From assembly GCF_988243305.1 (NCBI RefSeq), contig NZ_OZ547136.1: 64,000 nucleotides of DNA; one strand, 5' to 3'. This document shows, piece by piece, positions 1-22,545 of the stretch. Position numbers and translations under genes: made by a program. The notes below the pieces were generated by a model. The model was not told the origin of the DNA and searched no databases. It worked only from the letters and a program-made list of their open reading frames with translations. Each line of letters opens with the position of its first letter. Within the stretch, counting starts at the first letter, position 1.

Positions 1-2603
<2,603 letters not shown>

Positions 2604-2629
<26 letters not shown>

Positions 2630-3149
2630 TCAGCAACCCCGGTATCAGTTCATCCAGCGCGGCTGCTTTGTTCATGGCTTTGATGATATCCCGTTTCAGG
2701 AAATCAACATGTCGGTTTTCCAGTTCCGGAAAACGCCGCTGCACCGACAGGGGGATCCCGTCGAGAATACTGGCAATTTCACCTGCGATCCGCGACAGCA
2801 CGAAAGTACAGAATGCGGTTTCCACCACTTCAGCGGAGTCTCTGGCATTCTTCAGTTCCTGTGCGTCGGCCTGCGCACGCGTAAGTCGATGGCGTTCGTA
2901 CTCAATAGTCCCTGGCTGGAGATCTGCCTCGCTGGCCTGCCGCAGTTCTTCAACCTCCCGGCGCAGCTTTTCGTTCTCAATTTCAGCATCCCTTTCGGCA
3001 TACCATTTTATAACGGCAGCAGAGTCATAAAGCACCTCATTACCCTTGCCACCGCCTCGCAGAACGGGCATTCCCTGTTCCTGCCAGTTCTGAATGGTAC
3101 GGATACTCGCACCGAAAATGTCAGCCAGCTGCTTTTTGTTGACTTCCAT
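2604..3149 (-). CDS. nu1: Terminase small subunit Nu1
   Basis: 181-aa ORF MEVNKKQLADIFGASIRTIQNWQEQGMPVLRGGGKGNEVLYD..., matches lambda Nu1; overlaps start of A as in lambda. Confidence 0.95.
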
Positions 3150-4094: not shown

Positions 4095-4388
4095 ATGAAA
4101 AAAATGTTGTTTTCTGCCGCTCTGGCAATGCTTATTACAGGATGTGCTCAACAGACGTTTACTGTTGGAAACAAACCGACAGCAGTAACACCAAAGGAAA
4201 CCATCACCCATCACTTCTTCGTTTCGGGAATTGGACAGGAGAAAACTGTTGATGCAGCCAAAATTTGTGGCGGCGCAGAAAATGTTGTTAAAACAGAAAC
4301 CCAGCAAACATTCGTAAATGGATTGCTCGGTTTTATTACTTTAGGCATTTATACTCCGCTGGAAGCGCGTGTGTATTGCTCACAATAA
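4095..4388 (+). CDS. bor: Bor lipoprotein (serum-resistance lipoprotein of lambdoid phages)
   Basis: 97-aa product from internal ATG with SD aggataataag: MKKMLFSAALAMLITGCAQQTFTV..., lipobox LITGC; matches lambda Bor. Confidence 0.9.
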   Translation: MKKMLFSAALAMLITGCAQQTFTVGNKPTAVTPKETITHHFFVSGIGQEKTVDAAKICGGAENVVKTETQQTFVNGLLGFITLGIYTPLEARVYCSQ

Positions 4389-6875: not shown

Positions 6876-7349
6876 ACAGCGAATCAGATCAAATAAAACG
6901 CACATTTGTTAACATTTACACAAAGTCTGCGTGGGATATTCTGAAAGAATATCCATAATGTGGAGAGAATCTATTGAAGTGCATGGTGCCGGGTGCCTCC
7001 CGGTGAATTCAGTACCAGCACCTGAATCCGCGATTATCCCATATACCTACTCGCTGATTGCCCCTCCGCACAGGGGGATTCACCATGCCAGTTTCTTTTA
7101 ACAAACTCCCCGCAAACCAGAGAACAGTCAACCGCCTGAATTGTGAAGTATTTAAAAATTTCTCCCGCTAACTGATACCCGGCTAACAGTCTGGCGTTTT
7201 CTTTTTCAGCAACGGGAAAGCAACAACCACCACACCCGCCACCAGCACACCGTCAGCCAGCACTGACATTATCCGGCTGCTGCAATGCCATTCACAAAAA
7301 CAGTAAGCAATCACTTTTTACCGTAACAGGTGATAATCCAGATATGTAT

Positions 7350-7813: not shown

Positions 7814-7890
7814 TGGCGCGCTGTACTGGATTCGAACCAGTAACCGATTGCTTAGAAGGCAATTGCTCTGTCCGGCTGAGCTAACAACGC
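7814..7890 (-). tRNA. tRNA-Arg (anticodon UCU)
   Basis: Reverse complement gcgttgttagctcagccggacagagcaattgccttctaagcaatcggttactggttcgaatccagtacagcgcgcca folds as cloverleaf: 7-bp acceptor stem, anticodon loop cttctaa, T-loop ttcgaat, CCA end. Confidence 0.9.
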
Positions 7891-7994: not shown

Positions 7995-8070
7995 TGGTGG
8001 CCCTTGCTGGATTTGAACCAGCGACCTGGCGATTATGAGTCGCTCGCTCTCACCACTGAGCTAAAGGGCC
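7995..8070 (-). tRNA. tRNA with CAU anticodon (Ile2/lysidine type or Met), resembling phage ileZ
   Basis: Reverse complement ggccctttagctcagtggtgagagcgagcgactcataatcgccaggtcgctggttcaaatccagcaagggccacca; perfect 7-bp acceptor stem, anticodon loop ctcataa, CCA end. Confidence 0.9.
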
Positions 8071-9035: not shown

Positions 9036-9409
9036 TTTTTGACCTGCTCTTCATGCATTATGGGGTAAATCTTCACCCCCAGACGTCCACCAGATACTGG
9101 CTGACCACGAACGATATTGATTTCATCAAACTGCTCATCGTCCATTAACACTCCCGCATGCGTCAGCGCATCCAGCGGTGCTTTCAGGATATTGTCCAGG
9201 TCGCGACGACGCTTATCCGGTGGCTCTGCAATCACCTTTATCGCCAGCCTTCCGGACAGGCTTAATTTCAGCCGCTGCTGGCGAACAATAAGCGCCACAG
9301 CCCGGCGATAACGCTTTCCCTCCTCCGAGATAAAATATGTGCTGCCACGGCGTCGCCAGTAAGTGTTCACCGTCGGCGGGTAAGGTAAAACCAAATCTAT
9401 GAGCATCAC
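9032..9409 (-). CDS. rusA: Holliday junction resolvase RusA
   Basis: 125-aa ORF ...LPYPPTVNTYWRRRG...DKRRRDLDNILKAPLDALTHAGVLMDDEQ... matches RusA motifs. Confidence 0.8.
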   Translation of the reverse strand: MMLIDLVLPYPPTVNTYWRRRGSTYFISEEGKRYRRAVALIVRQQRLKLSLSGRLAIKVIAEPPDKRRRDLDNILKAPLDALTHAGVLMDDEQFDEINIVRGQPVSGGRLGVKIYPIMHEEQVKK

Positions 9410-10469: not shown

Positions 10470-10748
10470 TTACCTCCAGATGCGTTGCTGGAATGTGCGG
10501 GACGGACGCGGTGATCGTTCGGAGTAAGGAAGCCTGACGGAGATTATCCAGTGACGATAATCGAGGCTGAGGGCTTTCTTAATCTCGTATCCGTGTCTGC
10601 GGTAGCACTGAATTAGCCACTCGGCCTGTTCTTCAGTGCATGGGGGATGCTGGAACCAGTCAGATTTGAAAGTGCGGGAACGCCGCCCGTGCCTGCTGGC
10701 AAAGACGGCAGAATCATCAGAATTGTGTAATTTGGTATCGTGCGCCAT
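10470..10748 (-). CDS. Small nin-region protein (Rem-like); start assumed at internal Met
   Basis: MAHDTKLHNSDDSAVFASRHGRRSRTFKSDWFQHPPCTEEQAEWLIQCYRRHGYEIKKALSLDYRHWII...; family from memory. Confidence 0.4.
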   Translation of the reverse strand: MAHDTKLHNSDDSAVFASRHGRRSRTFKSDWFQHPPCTEEQAEWLIQCYRRHGYEIKKALSLDYRHWIISVRLPYSERSPRPSRTFQQRIWR

Positions 10749-10915
10749 CGGTTGTCTCTGCTGGCGCAGCAGGTGCCAGTTGTTCAGGCTGGCGTGCGAA
10801 TTGTAAACCAGAATGCCAGGAAAAAACAAAACCCGCCGAAGCGGGTTACGTGCGGGTGCGTTGAGGATGCCTGACACATCAGAGGTGGCGAGGGATTTCT
10901 CCCTCGCCGGGTCTC

Positions 10916-11071
10916 TTACTCCTCAGGTTCGTAAACTGTGAAGACAGCGACCTCCGTCTGGCCGGTTCGGATTCGTACCTCGCAGAGGTCTTTCCTCGTT
11001 ACCAGTGCCGTCACTATGACGGTTAAACAGATGACGATCAGGGCGATTAACATCGCCTTTTGCTGCTTCAT
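10916..11071 (-). CDS. hok: Hok/Gef family type I toxin (HokD/RelF-like)
   Basis: 51-aa product MKQQKAMLIALIVICLTVIVTALVTRKDLCEVRIRTGQTEVAVFTVYEPEE; single TM helix and conserved Cys; track ORF carries an in-frame 19-codon upstream extension. Confidence 0.9.
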   Translation of the reverse strand: MKQQKAMLIALIVICLTVIVTALVTRKDLCEVRIRTGQTEVAVFTVYEPEE

Positions 11072-11791
11072 AGCCTGCTTCTCCTTGCCTTTCGGCACGT
11101 AAGAGGCTAACCTAGATTTGCCGTTCATAGATTGAGCCTCAGATTAATGTTAAGCGTCTTGCAGGACGCGTAATGTTAACTGGGGCTTTTCTCTATCTGC
11201 CTTTGGTGTTCATGCCTGAGGCAGATAGCCTCAAGCACCCGCAGCAATTCTACTTAACTCCCGTCACCTCGCCAATATAAAATCAATCAGAAAGGCGATC
11301 CATAAGAACAACAGCAAGACAATAAATTGCCATTACAGCCGCAATAGCTAGCGCACATTTGAGAACCAGCACGACAACCTCCTGTATTGGACGTACACCA
11401 GTTCTGATAAATATGAGGCTGTCTCATCATTGATTCAATATAACTATTGGGTATAGTTTCTGTGATTTTGTTCTGTAGAAATGGAACACAACAACCAGTC
11501 ACCACCAGCACTTCTTTAAATACGCCAAGTCCGACGCAAGCTAACCTTCTAGTCCGCTTTGAGCGAGGAGCGGACCAAACCCGGCCAACTGACTCTTAAA
11601 GGGGCCGCAGGAATTTTTCGTCTGAACTTTCGAAGCTCCTCTCCCTGAAGACAGAAAACTTCTGTGTGCTGTGGGAATATTGAATCTTTGCATTAGATAT
11701 AAATAATTTTATCCCGCCTGAAGTTTACATTATTTTATTTATCTGTTTTTCTAAATCAGACTGCACTCCTTACTTAAATCAGGAGCCAGTC

Positions 11792-12991
11792 ATGCCATTT
11801 GTTATTTATGTGTTTACTATCAGTGCCTTTGCGCTCGGACTCGCGGAATTTGTCCCCATTGGGCTGACAGACGTTATGGCTCAGGGGTTGTGTGTGGGTG
11901 TGGAGCAGACCGGGGCAGCGGTTACAACCTATGCACTGGGGGCAACGTTCGCGGCACCCGTACTGTCTGCGCTGACAGCAAGCTGGAGCCGGAAAAATGT
12001 AATGCTTACAACTGCCGTTGTGTTTACTGCCGGTAGTCTGGCGGCCGCGTTTGCAGCCACATTACCTCAGCTCCTGTTAGCGCGGTTCATTGCTGGTCTG
12101 GGACACGGCCTGTTTCTGGCTGCGGCATCCAGTACCGCAGCTCGTCTTGCTGGACCGGGTAAAGCAGGCAGAGCGGTGGCTGTGGTATTTGGTGGCTTTA
12201 CTCTGGCGATGGCAATCGGCGTACCGCTGAGTACATGGTTGGGGGGGGTGGTCTCATGGCGTCCAGTTCTCGGCGCTATTGCCGCTTTTGGCGCGTTCGG
12301 ATTCCTTGGACTGTTGTTCGGTATGAAAGATCCCGTACGCAGCGTGCCCGGTGAACATAGTGACTCAGCAATGCAGAATATCGGCATGCTGTTTAACCGT
12401 AAGTTGCTGGCCGGCGCGCTGGTTACGGTGCTGGCGTATGCAGGCTCGTTTACGGCTTACACCTTTATCGCACCTATTCTGACGCAGGTGACAGGGGTTA
12501 CCGGAGCAAAGGTGAGTCTGTTTATGCTGGTTTACGGTATTACAGCTGCGGTAGGTAATATTCTTGGTGGGAAACTTACCGACAGCATGGGGGTTAATCG
12601 TGCCAATATACTCATCATTAGCGGCATTGTTGTTGTCGTGCTTGGTATGTGGCTGCTGTCATCCTCACCGGTGAGCATGGGCATTCTGGTTGCGCTGCTG
12701 GGTATGGTGACATTTGCCGCAGTGCCGGCACTGCAGGCCCGTCTGATTGGTGTCGCTGAGCAACATGCTCCTCATGCGCATGGTGTTGCTGCCGGCCTGA
12801 ATATTGCGGGCTTCAACTCAGGTATAGCGCTGGGATCAGTACTGGGCAGCATTACTATAAGCCACGCCGGTATCGTGTATACCGGTATCAGCGGTGCGAT
12901 TGTTTCTCTGCTCGGCCTGCTGTTGCTGCTTGCACAAATCCGTCGCAGCCACAGTCGTAAATTTCAACAGGTTAAAATCGTAGGCCAGTAA
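11792..12991 (+). CDS. MFS transporter (12-TM)
   Basis: 399-aa highly hydrophobic ORF MPFVIYVFTISAFALGLAEFVPIGLTDVMAQ... with MFS-like repeat organisation. Confidence 0.7.
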   Translation: MPFVIYVFTISAFALGLAEFVPIGLTDVMAQGLCVGVEQTGAAVTTYALGATFAAPVLSALTASWSRKNVMLTTAVVFTAGSLAAAFAATLPQLLLARFIAGLGHGLFLAAASSTAARLAGPGKAGRAVAVVFGGFTLAMAIGVPLSTWLGGVVSWRPVLGAIAAFGAFGFLGLLFGMKDPVRSVPGEHSDSAMQNIGMLFNRKLLAGALVTVLAYAGSFTAYTFIAPILTQVTGVTGAKVSLFMLVYGITAAVGNILGGKLTDSMGVNRANILIISGIVVVVLGMWLLSSSPVSMGILVALLGMVTFAAVPALQARLIGVAEQHAPHAHGVAAGLNIAGFNSGIALGSVLGSITISHAGIVYTGISGAIVSLLGLLLLLAQIRRSHSRKFQQVKIVGQ

Positions 12992-13002
12992 AGGGAGGTT
13001 AT

Positions 13003-13695
13003 ATGCTTACCCGTGAAAATATGCTTAATGGCACATTTGTCAGGGTGCATGAAGCGCTGCTCCCGGCGAATATGCTCTGGGACGCTGAAAAAATACGCGC
13101 ATCAATGAACTCTACTCTGGAGGAGCGCCCGACGGGTGCTCCTTTCTGGATATTTGCCTACGGGTCATTGATGTGGAATCCCGTGCTGGCAATTGAAGAA
13201 ATGCAACGGGCCCGTCTGAAAGGATGGCAGCGCAGTTTCTGCATTCGTTTGATATCCGGACGAGCGACTCCTGATGTCCCCGGCAGGATGTTATCGCTCG
13301 ACGAAGGTGGAATTACCGAAGGTATTGCGTTCAGACTGCCGGAATCGACTCTTATTAATGAGCTGGAAATTGTCTGGACGCGCGAGATGATAACCGGTCT
13401 TTACCGTCCGGTCTGGGCAGACGTTTCGCTAGGAAACGGTGAGGAAATTCAGGCGCTGGCTTTCGTATCAGACAGACTGCATCCGCATTATGAACAGGAC
13501 AATCTTACAGCGACCGTAGCGTTGAGCATCGCATCTGCCCGTGGAGACATTGGCACGAATGCAGATTATGTATGGAAACTGCAGGCCACTCTGGGTGCGT
13601 TGGGAATACGGGATGATTACGTGAGTGAACTGGCCCTTGCTCTGCATGAGGCTCCCTGTAACGATAAACTTCATCAGCGAGGCGCTTCACTATGA
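13003..13695 (+). CDS. ChaC-like gamma-glutamylcyclotransferase family protein
   Basis: 230-aa ORF with FWIFAYGSLMWNP motif and overall similarity to ChaC. Confidence 0.7.
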   Translation: MLTRENMLNGTFVRVHEALLPANMLWDAEKIRASMNSTLEERPTGAPFWIFAYGSLMWNPVLAIEEMQRARLKGWQRSFCIRLISGRATPDVPGRMLSLDEGGITEGIAFRLPESTLINELEIVWTREMITGLYRPVWADVSLGNGEEIQALAFVSDRLHPHYEQDNLTATVALSIASARGDIGTNADYVWKLQATLGALGIRDDYVSELALALHEAPCNDKLHQRGASL

Positions 13696-14573
13696 GCCAT
13701 CTGAGCCATCTGCGAACGTTTCTTGAGGCCTATCGCTCTGGCTCCTTTTCAAAGGCGGCAGAACTACTGGGCATCACTCAGCCCGCGGCGTCACAGCATA
13801 TCCAGTCTCTTGAGACTCTGGTTGGTAAGCGTCTGTTTATCAGGCAGGCCAGAGGCGTGACGGCAACCGAAGCTGCGGATGAGCTTGCCCGCTCAGTTTC
13901 ACCCTTCATTGATGGTCTGGAAGAAAAGCTGTCCTCTTTCCGGTCAGGCTCTGTACACGGGGGAACAATTAATCTGGCAGGACCGCCAGATTTTATTCAT
14001 TCCCGGCTTGGGACAGTAATGGCTCCACTAATGAAGGAGGGGTATCGCCTACGCTTTCATACCGGCAATAAGCAACGTATTTATTCCCTTTTGCATGACG
14101 GGAGCGCCGATCTCGCTGTTACCGCATCTATGCCTGATGACCGTCTGTACGGCTATGCACATCTACTGACTGAACGCATGCTCCTTGTTCATGCTCCCGC
14201 CATGTCAGAGATCATCGGATCAGAACCTGGTGCTGAAACGCTTGCCTCATTACCGCTGATTGCTTATGACGAAGAGTTGCCACTGATTAGAGCGCTCTGG
14301 GCCTCCATGTTTCAGAGAGCCCCTGAGATGCAGGCTACATTCACCATTCCGGATTTACGTATTATCCGCGACTTGGTCTGTGACGGCCACGGGTGGACAG
14401 TGCTGCCGGATTATCACTGTGACAATGACCTGAAAAGTGGTCGCCTGATTTCAGTGACACCTGCAGACCTCGCTCCGACTAATCATCTTTATCTGGTCTG
14501 GAACAAAAGGACGGCTAATAACAGCCGAACCGCCTATGTTCGGGATTACATTCTTAAAACGTTTCCGCGTTGA
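13692..14573 (+). CDS. LysR-family transcriptional regulator
   Basis: 293-aa ORF MSHLSHLRTFLEAYRSGSFSKAAELLGITQPAASQHIQSLE... (LysR HTH), overlaps ChaC-like stop by 4 nt. Confidence 0.85.
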   Translation: MSHLSHLRTFLEAYRSGSFSKAAELLGITQPAASQHIQSLETLVGKRLFIRQARGVTATEAADELARSVSPFIDGLEEKLSSFRSGSVHGGTINLAGPPDFIHSRLGTVMAPLMKEGYRLRFHTGNKQRIYSLLHDGSADLAVTASMPDDRLYGYAHLLTERMLLVHAPAMSEIIGSEPGAETLASLPLIAYDEELPLIRALWASMFQRAPEMQATFTIPDLRIIRDLVCDGHGWTVLPDYHCDNDLKSGRLISVTPADLAPTNHLYLVWNKRTANNSRTAYVRDYILKTFPR

Positions 14574-14625
14574 TGTTTGAAACGGATGATTGGCGATGTG
14601 TATCATAAGTTACGTATGTCCGCTT

Positions 14626-14641
14626 CTGGCACAAAGCAGAC
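14626..14641 (+). repeat. 16-17 bp direct repeat, copy 1 (ctggcacaaagcagac), flanking the membrane-protein/BCCT module
   Basis: Near-identical copy cttggcacaaagcggac at 18298-18314. Confidence 0.5.
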
Positions 14642-14703
14642 GCCCACTCTCACGCGAATGCTTTGCCCTTGACTTGCCAACAACCGTATCGCTTGCTCCG
14701 CAA

Positions 14704-15996
14704 CTATGGTTTTTTATTAGAACCTTCGCCACTAAATAAATTATAATAAATTGATTTTATTAGATATCTGTCAGAATCTATATGGTCAGCACGAGTAGCA
14801 TGCTCTAATGTTTCAAATGCTAGGGTTTGTGCGGCTTCAGCAAAAATTCCAGGCCAACCCTTACTCAGCATCGACAGTCCTTTAAGTACCCTTATCTGAA
14901 TTTCCCTCATACTGGCACCATCGCGCGCAACAGGTGAGAAAAAGTCTTCAAGTAGATCGTTATTCTGAAGTGGTGCAACATGTACAGAAGGATATTTCAC
15001 TTCTATTTCATCAGATTTATTCTGCGCGTAAGCGGAAAGTATACGTACACCTCTGCCAATGACATCAATGGCGGTTCCAGGATCGTTCACTGCGGGGGAA
15101 AGGGCTCGGCAGGCTATTTCGGCCATGACGCTAAGACAAAATCGGGGGTCCTGAGCAAATGAACGTACATCCGAGACAATAATCGTCTCAAGTAAATCGG
15201 TGCTGATTGATGACTCCTGGCCCTGACTCAGGTACAAAACTGGCGTGGACGGATGTATGAAACTGCCCGGCTGCGCCACGAGGTATACATGACGGGGATC
15301 ATTGGTCAGCAGCTTGCTGAGTTTCACCATATCAACATATTCAACATAGCCAATCTTTTTCGGATAAACTGCAACCGTTCCTTTCGGCTGTTCATTGTTC
15401 TCAAGCCATGGATATCCGCCGAGACAGGGATTTCTTGCTCTCGCAATAAATGTTTCGATGGCCGCCTGTTCTACTTTTGCCGTTGTCTCACCAACCCTCC
15501 CCAGAGAGGTCAAATGCTGTATCCAGCGAAGCAATGTGATGAGGATTAAGGCAATGACAACCAGTGTTACAATGAATAAAATGACTCTCCCCCTTTCTCC
15601 ATAAGCTCCCATATTGAGGGCAATAATCCCTACCAGACTGAAGAGAAAAGAACCGATGAAGGTGGCCAGTACATTTTGTGTGGTGACGTCTTCAACAACT
15701 AAACGAGTAGCTCTGGGAGTCACATTAGTAGTGGCTGAACCGTAGGCTGTGACCATGATGCTCAGCGAAAATGTGGTCACTGCCAGCATACTCGATGCCA
15801 GTATGTTCAGAATGTTATCGACTGCTTCCGCACCAACCTTCACGGAAACCGACTCAGGTATCATTGATTTAAAAAGAATTGATAAAAGGGCCGTTATTAT
15901 TGCGACAATTGCGAATAACGTTGCCCTGAACCATAGTTTTTTAAATGTCTGCTTCAGCATCCATTTCCAGCGTGAAATCATTCTGCATTCCCTCAT
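14704..15996 (-). CDS. Polytopic inner-membrane protein, family uncertain (possibly DUF2254-like)
   Basis: 430-aa ORF with N-terminal TM helices and a soluble C-terminal region; start codon uncertain. Confidence 0.5.
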   Translation of the reverse strand: MRECRMISRWKWMLKQTFKKLWFRATLFAIVAIITALLSILFKSMIPESVSVKVGAEAVDNILNILASSMLAVTTFSLSIMVTAYGSATTNVTPRATRLVVEDVTTQNVLATFIGSFLFSLVGIIALNMGAYGERGRVILFIVTLVVIALILITLLRWIQHLTSLGRVGETTAKVEQAAIETFIARARNPCLGGYPWLENNEQPKGTVAVYPKKIGYVEYVDMVKLSKLLTNDPRHVYLVAQPGSFIHPSTPVLYLSQGQESSISTDLLETIIVSDVRSFAQDPRFCLSVMAEIACRALSPAVNDPGTAIDVIGRGVRILSAYAQNKSDEIEVKYPSVHVAPLQNNDLLEDFFSPVARDGASMREIQIRVLKGLSMLSKGWPGIFAEAAQTLAFETLEHATRADHIDSDRYLIKSIYYNLFSGEGSNKKP

Positions 15997-16044
15997 ATTG
16001 CAGCCGGGATAAATAAATGCCGCCTCTGTGGCGGCATGTTGCTG

Positions 16045-18048
16045 TTAACGAACCAGATGCAGGAAGTGCAGGTGTTTTTCGTACTGGTCCAGTATGTCAT
16101 TAATCAGCTGTTCCTGATTCCAGCCCATTACATCATAATTTTGGCCGCCCTCTTTGAGATAGACTTCAGCGCGATAATATCGATGTTGTTCACTCTGCTG
16201 CTCATCATTATCCAGCGCAGCGAGCGCGAAGGTCGGTGAGTTATACCCGCGAAGCCTCACTTCATATATATAATTCAGCTCGTTGCCCAAATCGACTTCA
16301 AGGCGAATACGATCCTCGGCGGCGTCACTGATGTGGCTTATCGTTCCCTGCTTGTTAAGTTCCTCCTGAACCAGCGTCATGGCGGGTTGGATAATGTCGT
16401 CCATAAAACGTTTCACAAGAGAGCGCTTCGGCAAATACGCGATATTGCGTAACCTTCTCTGCCAGGGAATTGGGTTACGTGCAGCCGTAGGAGCAATAGT
16501 CGCCATGCTAAGGCTTTCACGCTTGGTCAAATCCCGACGCAGGGCTTTTAACAGTCCGTATATGGATATTAATAAGATAACTGAGAAGGGCAATGCACTC
16601 GCTATCGTTACGGTTTGCAACGCACTCAGCCCCCCTGCGATCAGCAGGGCAATAGCAACAACGCCCATGAGCGATGCCCAGAAAATTCGCTGCCAGACGG
16701 GCGTGTTTGCCACCCCACCTGATGCCAGAGTATCCACAACCATTGCCCCCGAATCAGCAGACGTTACAAAGAAGACGATGACCATCGCCATTGCAATGAA
16801 TGACAGCACGGAAGAGAACGGGAAATGCTCCAGGAAATTAAACAGGGCAAGCGCAACATCCTGCTGAACGGTATTGGCGAGGTCAGTGGCGCCCTGGTTC
16901 ATGATGAGATAGATGGCGCTGTTTCCAAACACCGTCATCCACATGAGCGTAAAGCCGGCGGGAACAAACAACACGCCAGTCACGAACTCACGAATTGTCC
17001 TGCCGCGGGAAACGCGTGCAATGAACATACCTACAAACGGCGACCATGAAAGCCACCATCCCCAGTATAATAATGTCCAGCCCCCCAGCCAGTTGCTCGA
17101 CTTGGGTTCATACGCGTAAAGGTTGAACGTTTTACTCACCAGTTCCGACAGATAACCACCCGTATTTTCCACAAATGACTTCAGCAGAAGCACAGTGGGA
17201 CCCAGGCACAAGACCAGCGCCAGGAGCAACACCGCCAGGCCCAGATTAAGCTCAGACAGGATGCGTATTCCCTTGTCCAGGCCGGACACCACCGAAATCG
17301 TCGCTAACCCCGTGATGACCACGATCAAAATGACCTGTACCGTTTCATTGATGGGCACGCCGAAAAGATGGTTCAAACCGGCATTCACCTGCAATACACC
17401 GTAACCCAGTGATGTTGCAACGCCAAAGACAGTGCCTATCACGGCGAAGATATCAACCGCGTGGCCTATAGGCCCGTAAATGCGATCGCCGATAATGGGA
17501 TAGAGCGCAGAACGCAGCGTTAAAGGCAGACCGTGACGGTAACTGAAAAAGGCCAGAATCAGCGCCACGATGGCATAAATTGCCCATGCGTGCAGACCCC
17601 AGTGGAAGAACGTCAGGCGCATGGCTTCCTTCGCTGCCGCAACGGTCTCTGGAGTGCCGACAGGTGGCGAAAGATAATGCATCACAGGTTCGGCAACGCC
17701 AAAGAACATCAGGCCGATCCCCATCCCTGCCGAAAAAAGCATCGCGAACCAGGAGTGGTAGCTGAAATCAGGCTGCGCATGGTCTGGGCCCAGCTTTATA
17801 TCACCGTAACGTGAGAGTCCAAGGAACGTGACGCTCAGTAAAATCAGGGCCACAGCAAGTATGTAGAACCAGCTGGCATTCGTGAAGATTTGTTGCTGAA
17901 GTAGTTTAAAATTTTTGTCGGCGACATCCGGGAATACGGCGGCAAAGGCGACAAGAAGGAAAATTAGCAAAGCAGATGTAAAGAATACCGCTTTGTTAAT
18001 CTGGCTTGTAGACTTCTTTGGGGTTGTATCATTTTCACTCATAATCAT
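16045..18048 (-). CDS. BCCT-family transporter (BetT-like choline/betaine transporter paralog)
   Basis: 667-aa ORF with BCCT hallmarks ...WTLLYWGWWLSWSPFVGMFIARVSRGRTIREF... and a BetT-like C-terminal cytoplasmic extension. Confidence 0.8.
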   Translation of the reverse strand: MIMSENDTTPKKSTSQINKAVFFTSALLIFLLVAFAAVFPDVADKNFKLLQQQIFTNASWFYILAVALILLSVTFLGLSRYGDIKLGPDHAQPDFSYHSWFAMLFSAGMGIGLMFFGVAEPVMHYLSPPVGTPETVAAAKEAMRLTFFHWGLHAWAIYAIVALILAFFSYRHGLPLTLRSALYPIIGDRIYGPIGHAVDIFAVIGTVFGVATSLGYGVLQVNAGLNHLFGVPINETVQVILIVVITGLATISVVSGLDKGIRILSELNLGLAVLLLALVLCLGPTVLLLKSFVENTGGYLSELVSKTFNLYAYEPKSSNWLGGWTLLYWGWWLSWSPFVGMFIARVSRGRTIREFVTGVLFVPAGFTLMWMTVFGNSAIYLIMNQGATDLANTVQQDVALALFNFLEHFPFSSVLSFIAMAMVIVFFVTSADSGAMVVDTLASGGVANTPVWQRIFWASLMGVVAIALLIAGGLSALQTVTIASALPFSVILLISIYGLLKALRRDLTKRESLSMATIAPTAARNPIPWQRRLRNIAYLPKRSLVKRFMDDIIQPAMTLVQEELNKQGTISHISDAAEDRIRLEVDLGNELNYIYEVRLRGYNSPTFALAALDNDEQQSEQHRYYRAEVYLKEGGQNYDVMGWNQEQLINDILDQYEKHLHFLHLVR

Positions 18049-18297
18049 TTATTCCATTAATTAAATCCGCACTGGATAGAAGGTACTACCTCTCACAGAG
18101 TAGCAAAGTTCAACTGGCTATGCGGGGTTAATCGGAATGCATGGTGGAATGAGTGCCGATACAAATCATCCTATATTCTAAGGAGTTTTAAGTTACTCAG
18201 CCTGCCAATTACTGGGGCATTTAATTTGTATGATCTGTATCAAAGCTGGGATATAAGTTAAGTGAAGTATATTAGGCACGAATTACCAGCGTCTGCT

Positions 18298-22006: not shown

Positions 22007-22545
22007 TAAAGGAGTTCTCCACGGGTGAGGTGGAGTGCGTGTGCCGGACACGGGTGAGCATCCGGCACTGACAGTTTACTGAAAGGATATTTCCCTGAAA
22101 AGTCAGACCATAACGCGAAAGCGCACGGCGAGGTAGCTGGTTCATAGATAGCCTGTCGTTAAATTTTCGTCGACCGTGCGCTTCCGGTTGTGGCAATCCG
22201 CGAAATGGCGCGGCGGTAAGTATGGCGGGGTTATTCCTTCCCCCGTTGAGGACACCGGGTTGTCAGGTTGACCATACGCTTAAGTGACAACCCCGCTGCA
22301 ACGCCCTCTGTTATCAATTTTCTGGTGACGTTTGGCGGTATCAGTTTTACTCCGTGACTGCTCTGCCGCCCTTTTTAAAGTGAATTTTGTGATGTGGTGA
22401 ATGCGGCTGAGCGCACGCGGAACAGTTAAAACCAAAAACAGTGTTATGGGTGGATTCTCTGTATCCGGCGTTAATTGTTAACTGGTTAACGTCACCTGGA
22501 GGCACCAGGCACCGCATCACAAAATTCATTGTTGAGGACGCGATA

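Follow-up and report, generated by a model that had tools for sequence, protein, structure and literature searches.

The question raised by this locus is whether the short hok-type gene of a 64-kb stretch of DNA (64,000 nucleotides, called the window) is a lone toxin ORF or one part of a complete type I toxin-antitoxin module. The analysis indicates, with a probability of roughly 0.9, that window ~10822-11275 holds an intact hok/mok/sok module of the hokD/hokW-sokW lineage, carried in the nin region of a Qin-like E. coli lambdoid prophage and controlled by an R1-like mRNA switch together with Sok. The locus is an ordinary, already described kind of element. The hok/sok family and its presence in lambdoid prophages are documented, in the form of hokW-sokW, which is in the 933W record and was tested in 2021.

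The hok toxin gene (10916..11071, minus strand) encodes 51 amino acids and a stop codon in the ORF list, with the peptide MKQQKAMLIALIVICLTVIVTALVTRKDLCEVRIRTGQTEVAVFTVYEPEE. This peptide matches Pfam HOK_GEF (PF01848) over profile positions 1-42 of 42 with 77.3 bits against a cut-off of 22 (E=6.4e-22), which is far above the chance level and upholds an earlier sequence-only reading of a complete Hok/Gef toxin. The Hok/mok product also matches PHROG_251, 'MokW-like host killing' (E=8e-32). A recent survey found the HokD coding sequence to be toxic and hok to be enriched in prophages (bioRxiv 10.1101/2025.08.07.668861). By analogy with R1 hok/sok and hokW-sokW, the Hok encoded here is probably toxic too. 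Many complete E. coli chromosomes contain a 100% identical copy of a 541-nt query (window 10880..11420), and in them RefSeq/PGAP marks the toxin ORF alone, under the label hokD. In E. coli AR_452, for example, the leader at the identical locus (NZ_CP030331.1 2278797-2278956, equal to window 11086-11245) carries no RefSeq/PGAP feature, neither mok nor a Sok RNA. Because PGAP leaves the leader blank, the antitoxin half of a very common module is invisible in standard annotation, and the marking of the toxin ORF alone is one point that the present analysis corrects.

The codons of Val46-Tyr47-Glu48 (GTT TAC GAA, window 10928-10936, minus strand) place the Tyr47 codon in a UACG context, the motif for A-to-I editing by TadA. 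Editing of hokB and similar Tyr-to-Cys recoding in hokC, hokD, and hokE are reported in a 2026 preprint. Relative to K-12 HokD, the A46V substitution alters the base that lies 3 nt 5' of the edited A, where a predicted G-C pair with the hok start region would become G-U.

Rfam RF01794 matches the minus strand at 11066..11240 over model positions 1-157 of 157 with 111.7 bits, where the gathering score is 59 (E=4e-26), and has no other such match in the 64 kb. Although the family bears the name 'sok', the RF01794 consensus has the hok AUG at its end, so it models the hok-sense leader and not the antisense RNA. A candidate sigma-70 promoter of the hok mRNA (11247..11275, minus strand; 9/12 matches in a consensus scan) is composed of -35 TTGGCG at 11275..11270, a 17-nt spacer, and -10 TAGAAT at 11252..11247. 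The first position of the RF01794 model points to the G at 11240 as the +1 of this mRNA; this base and the -10 are kept in 933W, HannyBb, and Tritos. From the Rfam leader start to an intrinsic terminator, the full-length hok mRNA would be ~415 nt long (10826..11240, minus strand), and mRNA position m corresponds to window position 11241-m.

The elements of this mRNA are all on the minus strand. The tac element occupies 11229..11240 (nt 1-12, GGGUGCUUGAGG), and the ucb or anti-SD box, which is unchanged across 67 hokD-type loci, occupies 11180..11188 (nt 53-61, AAGCCCCAG). The mok Shine-Dalgarno sequence, GAGG (11137..11140, nt 101-104), is read from the sequence 8 nt before the mok AUG. The mok frame of the ORF list has 70 codons (10916..11128), begins with ATG at 11128, and is in frame with hok and ends at the same stop codon; this layout equals that of the annotated mokW of 933W. 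mok is here an overlapping reading frame whose start region would be the Sok target, and its coupling to hok is expected by analogy. The Sok-target hairpin of the processed mRNA (11103..11140, nt 101-138) would pair the mok Shine-Dalgarno sequence with dcb (AGCCUC, 11108..11103, nt 133-138) and hold the mok AUG in its stem. The hok Shine-Dalgarno sequence, AAGGAG (11081..11086, nt 155-160), is likewise read from the sequence. Both the full-length and the 3'-truncated folds predict pairing of the hok SD/AUG region with nt 298-308, which is consistent with translation coupled to mok. In the 3' UTR, the hairpin GGCGAGGGA-GAAA-UCCCUCGCC (10887..10908) is seen in the minimum free energy (MFE) structure, and in 933W and other loci it has undergone compensatory exchanges of A-U for G-C; judged from R1, it may protect the processed mRNA as its 3' stem. 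It is followed by fbi (10854..10866, nt 375-387, CCUCAACGCACCC) and by the intrinsic terminator found in a terminator scan (10826..10847, AACCCGC-UUCG-GCGGGUU with a U tract), which is kept in most related loci.

The 3' UTR hairpin and terminator (10826-10907, minus strand) also resemble isrK, a Salmonella prophage sRNA, with 27.8 bits against a threshold of 50 (E=0.0013). This likeness may reflect a distant relationship or mere hairpin and terminator similarity. The Rfam matches to isrK, rsmX, CsrC, ceN48, and a fungal SRP RNA are far below their gathering scores and were taken as chance matches or hairpin echoes.

The antisense half of the module is encoded on the plus strand. The Sok promoter (11085..11113), with -35 TTGCCT at 11085..11090, a 17-nt spacer, and -10 TAACCT at 11108..11113, is a base-for-base match to the sokW promoter region of 933W. 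A generic promoter scan did not flag it, since its -10 matches the consensus at only 3/6 positions; it is accepted solely on the strength of its identity to the sokW promoter, which has been mutated experimentally. The predicted Sok antisense RNA of ~70 nt is placed at 11120..11192 by transfer of coordinates from the annotated sokW (2571..2641 of the 933W record, L001), and its ends are therefore putative. Its predicted fold has a long hairpin between a single-stranded 5' tail and a U-rich 3' tail (-31.5 kcal/mol, z=-5.3). The hairpin and the U-rich tail equal those of sokW save one loop base, and the first 11 nt differ from sokW at six positions. These differences in the 5' tail leave the cis complementarity intact, but the kinetics could differ. 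The expectation that a mok leader and a sok RNA lie upstream of the toxin gene is thus borne out by the mok ORF, the full RF01794 match, and the sokW-like promoter, body, and terminator.

Fold prediction of the hok mRNA had been proposed as a check, and it yields a tac/fbi and anti-SD switch. The 415-nt RNA has an MFE of -173.6 kcal/mol (z=-8.8 against shuffles). For an RNA of this length, an MFE prediction is only indicative; the ensemble frequency of this MFE structure is 0.0006. In both the MFE and the centroid of the full-length RNA, tac (nt 1-12) is predicted to form 12 bp with fbi (nt 375-387). The tac/fbi duplex has an energy of -21.5 kcal/mol compared with -14.9 +/- 2.1 for shuffled 5' ends, one of 200 of which equalled it. 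In the same predicted fold, the mok SD region (nt 99-106) is held by ucb (nt 54-61). After removal of ~40 nt from the 3' end, tac (nt 1-8) is predicted to pair with ucb (nt 53-59), and GAGGCU (nt 101-106) pairs with AGCCUC of dcb (nt 133-138) to give the Sok-target hairpin with the mok AUG, which is seen in the truncated fold only. In nascent transcripts of 30-50 nt, tac is predicted to lie on nt 19-29 in a metastable hairpin of -19.6 kcal/mol. The same three states have been described for the R1 hok mRNA, in which the mok SD is sequestered by the anti-SD in the same arrangement (PMC9841398). In the predicted structures, all R1-type elements are present: tac/fbi, ucb, dcb, the metastable 5' hairpin, and the terminator.

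The tac/fbi pairing covaries in divergent plasmid hok loci, such as the Vibrio and R1-type loci. The IMG/VR scan with the Hok protein gave 98-100% identical peptides alone, which are too close for covariation, so divergent plasmid loci located by their Rfam leader match were used. R1-type loci have GGCGCUU/AAGCGCC, and a Vibrio plasmid has GGGUGCUCUUGGU/ACCAACGAGCACCC. Because MAFFT misaligned the fbi of the divergent plasmid rows, pairing was assessed by duplex folding of each locus. One plasmid locus (L087) is disrupted by IS150 and has a leader score of 35 bits, and another (L091) gave no match in the Rfam scan.

Together, these elements suggest the following course of events. Transcription from the promoter at 11275-11247 would produce a stable hok mRNA of ~415 nt, in which tac-fbi pairing and the holding of the mok SD by ucb would shield the full-length form from both translation and Sok binding. 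Gradual trimming of the 3' end would then take off fbi, and the resulting tac/ucb and mok SD/dcb pairings would form the hairpin that presents the mok start region. As long as the module is transcribed, short-lived Sok (plus strand, ~11120-11192) would bind the mok start region through its 5' tail and block translation of mok, and hence the coupled translation of hok, and RNase III would cut the duplex. Once Sok is no longer made, whether the element is lost, transcription is shut off, or the prophage is induced, the stable processed mRNA would be translated, and Hok would depolarise the inner membrane. The 3' processing, the mok-hok coupling, and the RNase III cleavage in this scheme are modelled on R1 hok/sok and hokW-sokW.

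The neighbourhood of the module is that of a lambdoid prophage. The gene beside hok (10470..10748, minus strand; 92 aa) belongs to PHROG_1212 and has no assigned function. It had been described as Rem-like with hok downstream of it, and this does not stand: BLASTP of its product against K-12 Rem (b1561) gave no alignment at E<=100, and rem is absent. The homologue of this gene in K-12 MG1655 is an intact, unannotated ORF between ydfU and rem (L005 3307..3585). In K-12, rem sits in a 422-bp segment, in place of which 56 bp are found here. The identity of this neighbour is a second correction made by the analysis. On the other side of hok, a five-gene cargo (~11576-18200) encodes an MFS transporter, a ChaC-like gamma-glutamylcyclotransferase, a LysR regulator, a DUF2254 protein, and a BCCT transporter. 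It is situated between a prophage DUF977 gene and hok, three of its five genes are opposed to the phage early operon, and it joins the phage backbone at ~11575, a hok-side junction found in 285 of the 5,426 complete E. coli genomes. The earlier gene order needs reversing, as hok is on the minus strand and, by direction of transcription, lies upstream of the 92-aa gene and downstream of the cargo. Other RNA genes above the Rfam gathering scores are the STnc100 sRNA (6927-7117, minus strand), two tRNAs just downstream of Q (7817-7890 and 7998-8070, both minus strand), and DicF (22320-22371, plus strand), which fit a Qin/DLP12-like lambdoid prophage.

A small hydrophobic ORF of 29 aa (11283..11372, minus strand; V/MLVLKCALAIAAVMAIYCLAVVLMDRLSD) is found just upstream of the hok promoter. 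It has a GTG start with AGGAGG 5 nt upstream and ends 8 nt before the hok -35. In each of the 31 related loci that extend over this region the ORF is intact, with mostly conservative substitutions. No family was found for it in Pfam, PHROGs, or NCBIfam; PGAP gives it no annotation, and one 'hypothetical protein' record is present on 146 contigs. The ~230 bp upstream of the toxin start had been described as free of protein genes, which is right for 11072..11282, where no independent gene is found, and wrong for the far edge of that interval, inside which this ORF ends at 11283.

The payoff of the module for the prophage is likely to be earlier lysis and better phage release upon induction, by analogy with the hokW-sokW of Sp5; prophage addiction and exclusion of other phages are possibilities. 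A rival reading is that the module is structurally intact but silent for addiction through post-segregational killing and works as a phage accessory that speeds membrane damage and lysis upon induction. This is a real possibility, albeit the less probable one. In Sp5, deletion of hokW-sokW delays growth arrest by ~40 min and halves phage release, and HokW is seen on RecA-dependent induction only, ~1 h before endolysin (PMC8621323). As quoted in later literature, the chromosomal hokA, hokB, and hokC gave no killing after loss or rifampicin. The module here also occupies the early-to-late region, upstream of Q, with which it shares its orientation. However, three oppositely oriented cargo genes stand between the replication genes and hok, so that read-through from the early promoter is not assured, and the sequence gives nothing to discriminate a lysis role from an addiction role. 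The lysis-accessory interpretation departs from the intact, Sok-controlled module favoured here in its biological role only, and the parts and the control by Sok are the same in both.

It is far less probable that the locus is a decaying remnant, in which the toxin ORF is no longer under its own regulation or expression. Such a remnant is known from the nearest named relative, hokD (relF) of the K-12 Qin cryptic prophage. HokD of K-12 is identical to the Hok encoded here at 50 of 51 positions, and DNA identity is 98% over a stretch that begins 14 nt before the start codon and takes in the 3' UTR and terminator. K-12 Qin also shares the neighbourhood, with DUF968/ydfU and Q downstream, although rem is inserted downstream in K-12 and is lacking in the window. 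The homology of K-12 to the window runs from 11085 downward only and covers the hok SD, the ORF, the 3' UTR, and the terminator. The mok start, the Sok gene and its promoter, ucb, tac, and the hok promoter are all missing from K-12, and relBE is present instead. Because relE occupies the place of the leader, K-12 hokD is a truncated copy without the regulatory half. By direction of transcription, relBE is upstream of hokD, contrary to the earlier statement that relBE follows the K-12 homologue. The truncated form behind relBE is also met in IMG/VR loci and in 1,166 of the 5,426 complete E. coli genomes examined for the relE-hokD junction. In the window, by contrast, the full leader stands where K-12 has relE. 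Every element is present and scores like those of functional relatives, including the full-length Rfam match, the open mok frame, and the sokW-identical promoter; the tac/fbi, ucb, and dcb pairings are intact in the predicted folds, and the leader is strongly conserved outside one patch. An intact module therefore remains the preferred reading.

The spread of the two forms also bears on what is regarded as the normal state. The leader is found in 4,248 of the 5,426 complete E. coli genomes, at 9,401 places, with a median of 2 and up to 10 per genome. The breakpoint of K-12 is common to 4 of the 79 alignable IMG/VR loci, which were chosen by Hok similarity; relBE adjoins hok in a handful of loci, and in most contexts the module extends from ~11260 to ~10822. 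The earlier remark that this hok is 'without relBE' holds in that relBE is found nowhere in the 64-kb window, and it misleads in implying that this is unusual, given the numbers of genomes with the leader and with the relE-hokD junction. The leader-bearing module is the more widespread form, and relBE-hokD is not the reference state. The arrangement in K-12, which is often taken as the reference, is the truncated one, and this is a further corrective outcome.

The weakest alternative, that the upstream 230 bp encode something else, such as a 35-aa ORF (11173..11280) or another sok-like RNA, either of them on the plus strand, draws on that ORF, a 54-aa plus-strand ORF, and a weak plus-strand RF01794 match at 11182..11304, and is very nearly negligible, since the ORFs are antisense to a stretch in which RNA structure fully accounts for the pattern of conservation and the match, at 19.9 bits against a gathering score of 59 (E=0.085), overlaps the symmetric hairpins of the real leader. 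This match was rejected as a real element and regarded as a chance match or hairpin echo.

The conservation of the leader is interrupted by a hypervariable patch of 24 nt (11113..11136, minus strand; mRNA nt 105-128). It contains the mok AUG with the 8 nt before it, mok codons 2-5, the 5' tail of Sok, and the interval between the Sok -10 and +1. Outside the patch, the leader hardly varies across 67 hokD-type loci, with an entropy of at most 0.34 bit per site, compared with a mean of 0.88 bit per site over mRNA nt 111-120. Pairwise divergence is 0.30 in the patch; elsewhere in the leader it is 0.04, and at the third codon positions of hok 0.019, so that the patch diverges ~15-fold more than the latter. 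When the patch was compared across the collected loci (L006-L213), 195 IMG/VR copies gave 21 variants, with ~8 common types; the major types include those that encode MNGKS, MLYTR, MSHKC, MRHIE, MLDTC, and MLNTC. The target hairpin is predicted at -11.5 to -16 kcal/mol in 17 of the 18 sequence variants and at -6.6 in one single-copy variant, and the 70-codon mok frame is usually retained. One common type, CATATCTATGCGACACATAGAGAT (24 copies; for example L006, L017, and L031), has a mok of 19 codons whose UGA overlaps the hok AUG (AUGA), which is another coupling geometry within the same lineage. In the viral contig L141, two hokD-type leaders with different patch types (2883-2936 and 4253-4306) are on the same strand ~1.4 kb apart, as tandem hok loci.

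The 5' tail of Sok, which is part of the patch, is said to initiate Sok/hok recognition in R1, according to work by Franch and colleagues in 1999. It can be hypothesized that the patch defines at least eight discrete Sok/hok recognition classes that were diversified by selection, so that each co-resident hok obeys its own Sok alone. This hypothesis is tentative and, on balance, rather unlikely in this full form. If it is true, the Sok of one prophage would be unable to disarm the toxin of another prophage, and selection for orthogonal antitoxin specificity would explain the coexistence of many hok copies per genome. Patch types differ in 13 of the 14 co-resident IMG/VR pairs, but random pairing already gives 87% different pairs, and there is no evidence in these pairs for avoidance of a shared patch type within a genome (the probability that all 14 differ is 0.15). 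Selection for orthogonal specificity is plausible but unproven. An earlier description of a hypervariable Sok patch was not found in the literature searched. Pedersen and Gerdes, in 1999, reportedly covered the chromosomal hok loci, including the rearrangement of K-12 hokD.

Among the closest known systems is mokW/hokW/sokW of 933W and Sakai prophage 5 (Sp5; AF125520), with 93% DNA identity over window 11260..10844. HokW is identical to the Hok encoded here at 47 of 51 positions (92%), and the four differing residues are C-terminal. The 70-codon in-frame mok and the 51-aa hok are shared, and tac, ucb, dcb, and fbi are identical in the two loci, as are the Sok promoter, hairpin (one loop base apart), and terminator. 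The two loci differ in mok codons 2-5, where the frame begins MNGKS in the window and MLNTC in 933W, in the 5' tail of Sok, and in the hok terminator and -35 flank. Their positions are also different: the module of the window lies in the nin region upstream of Q, whereas that of 933W is near the right end of the genome. In 933W/Sp5, HokW arrests growth, and sokW expressed from its own promoter neutralises it; a -10 mutation abolishes this protection, for which RNase III and Hfq are partly required (Takada et al. 2021, PMC8621323). Northern blotting revealed the sokW transcript in Sp5, where addition of mitomycin C causes sokW to vanish and HokW to accumulate in the inner membrane, and hokW-sokW roughly doubles phage release upon induction (PMC8621323).

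The R1 hok/sok system (parB), the paradigm of type I modules, is more distant at the protein level, as its Hok is ~40-44% identical to the Hok encoded here. R1 is a plasmid system for which post-segregational killing has been shown, whereas the carrier in the window is a prophage. The mok of R1 lies in a different frame from hok, and in the window the two are in frame. Both systems belong to Rfam RF01794 and have the same architecture and predicted RNA switch, with tac/fbi, ucb, dcb, a metastable 5' hairpin, and a Sok RNA antisense to the mok start region.
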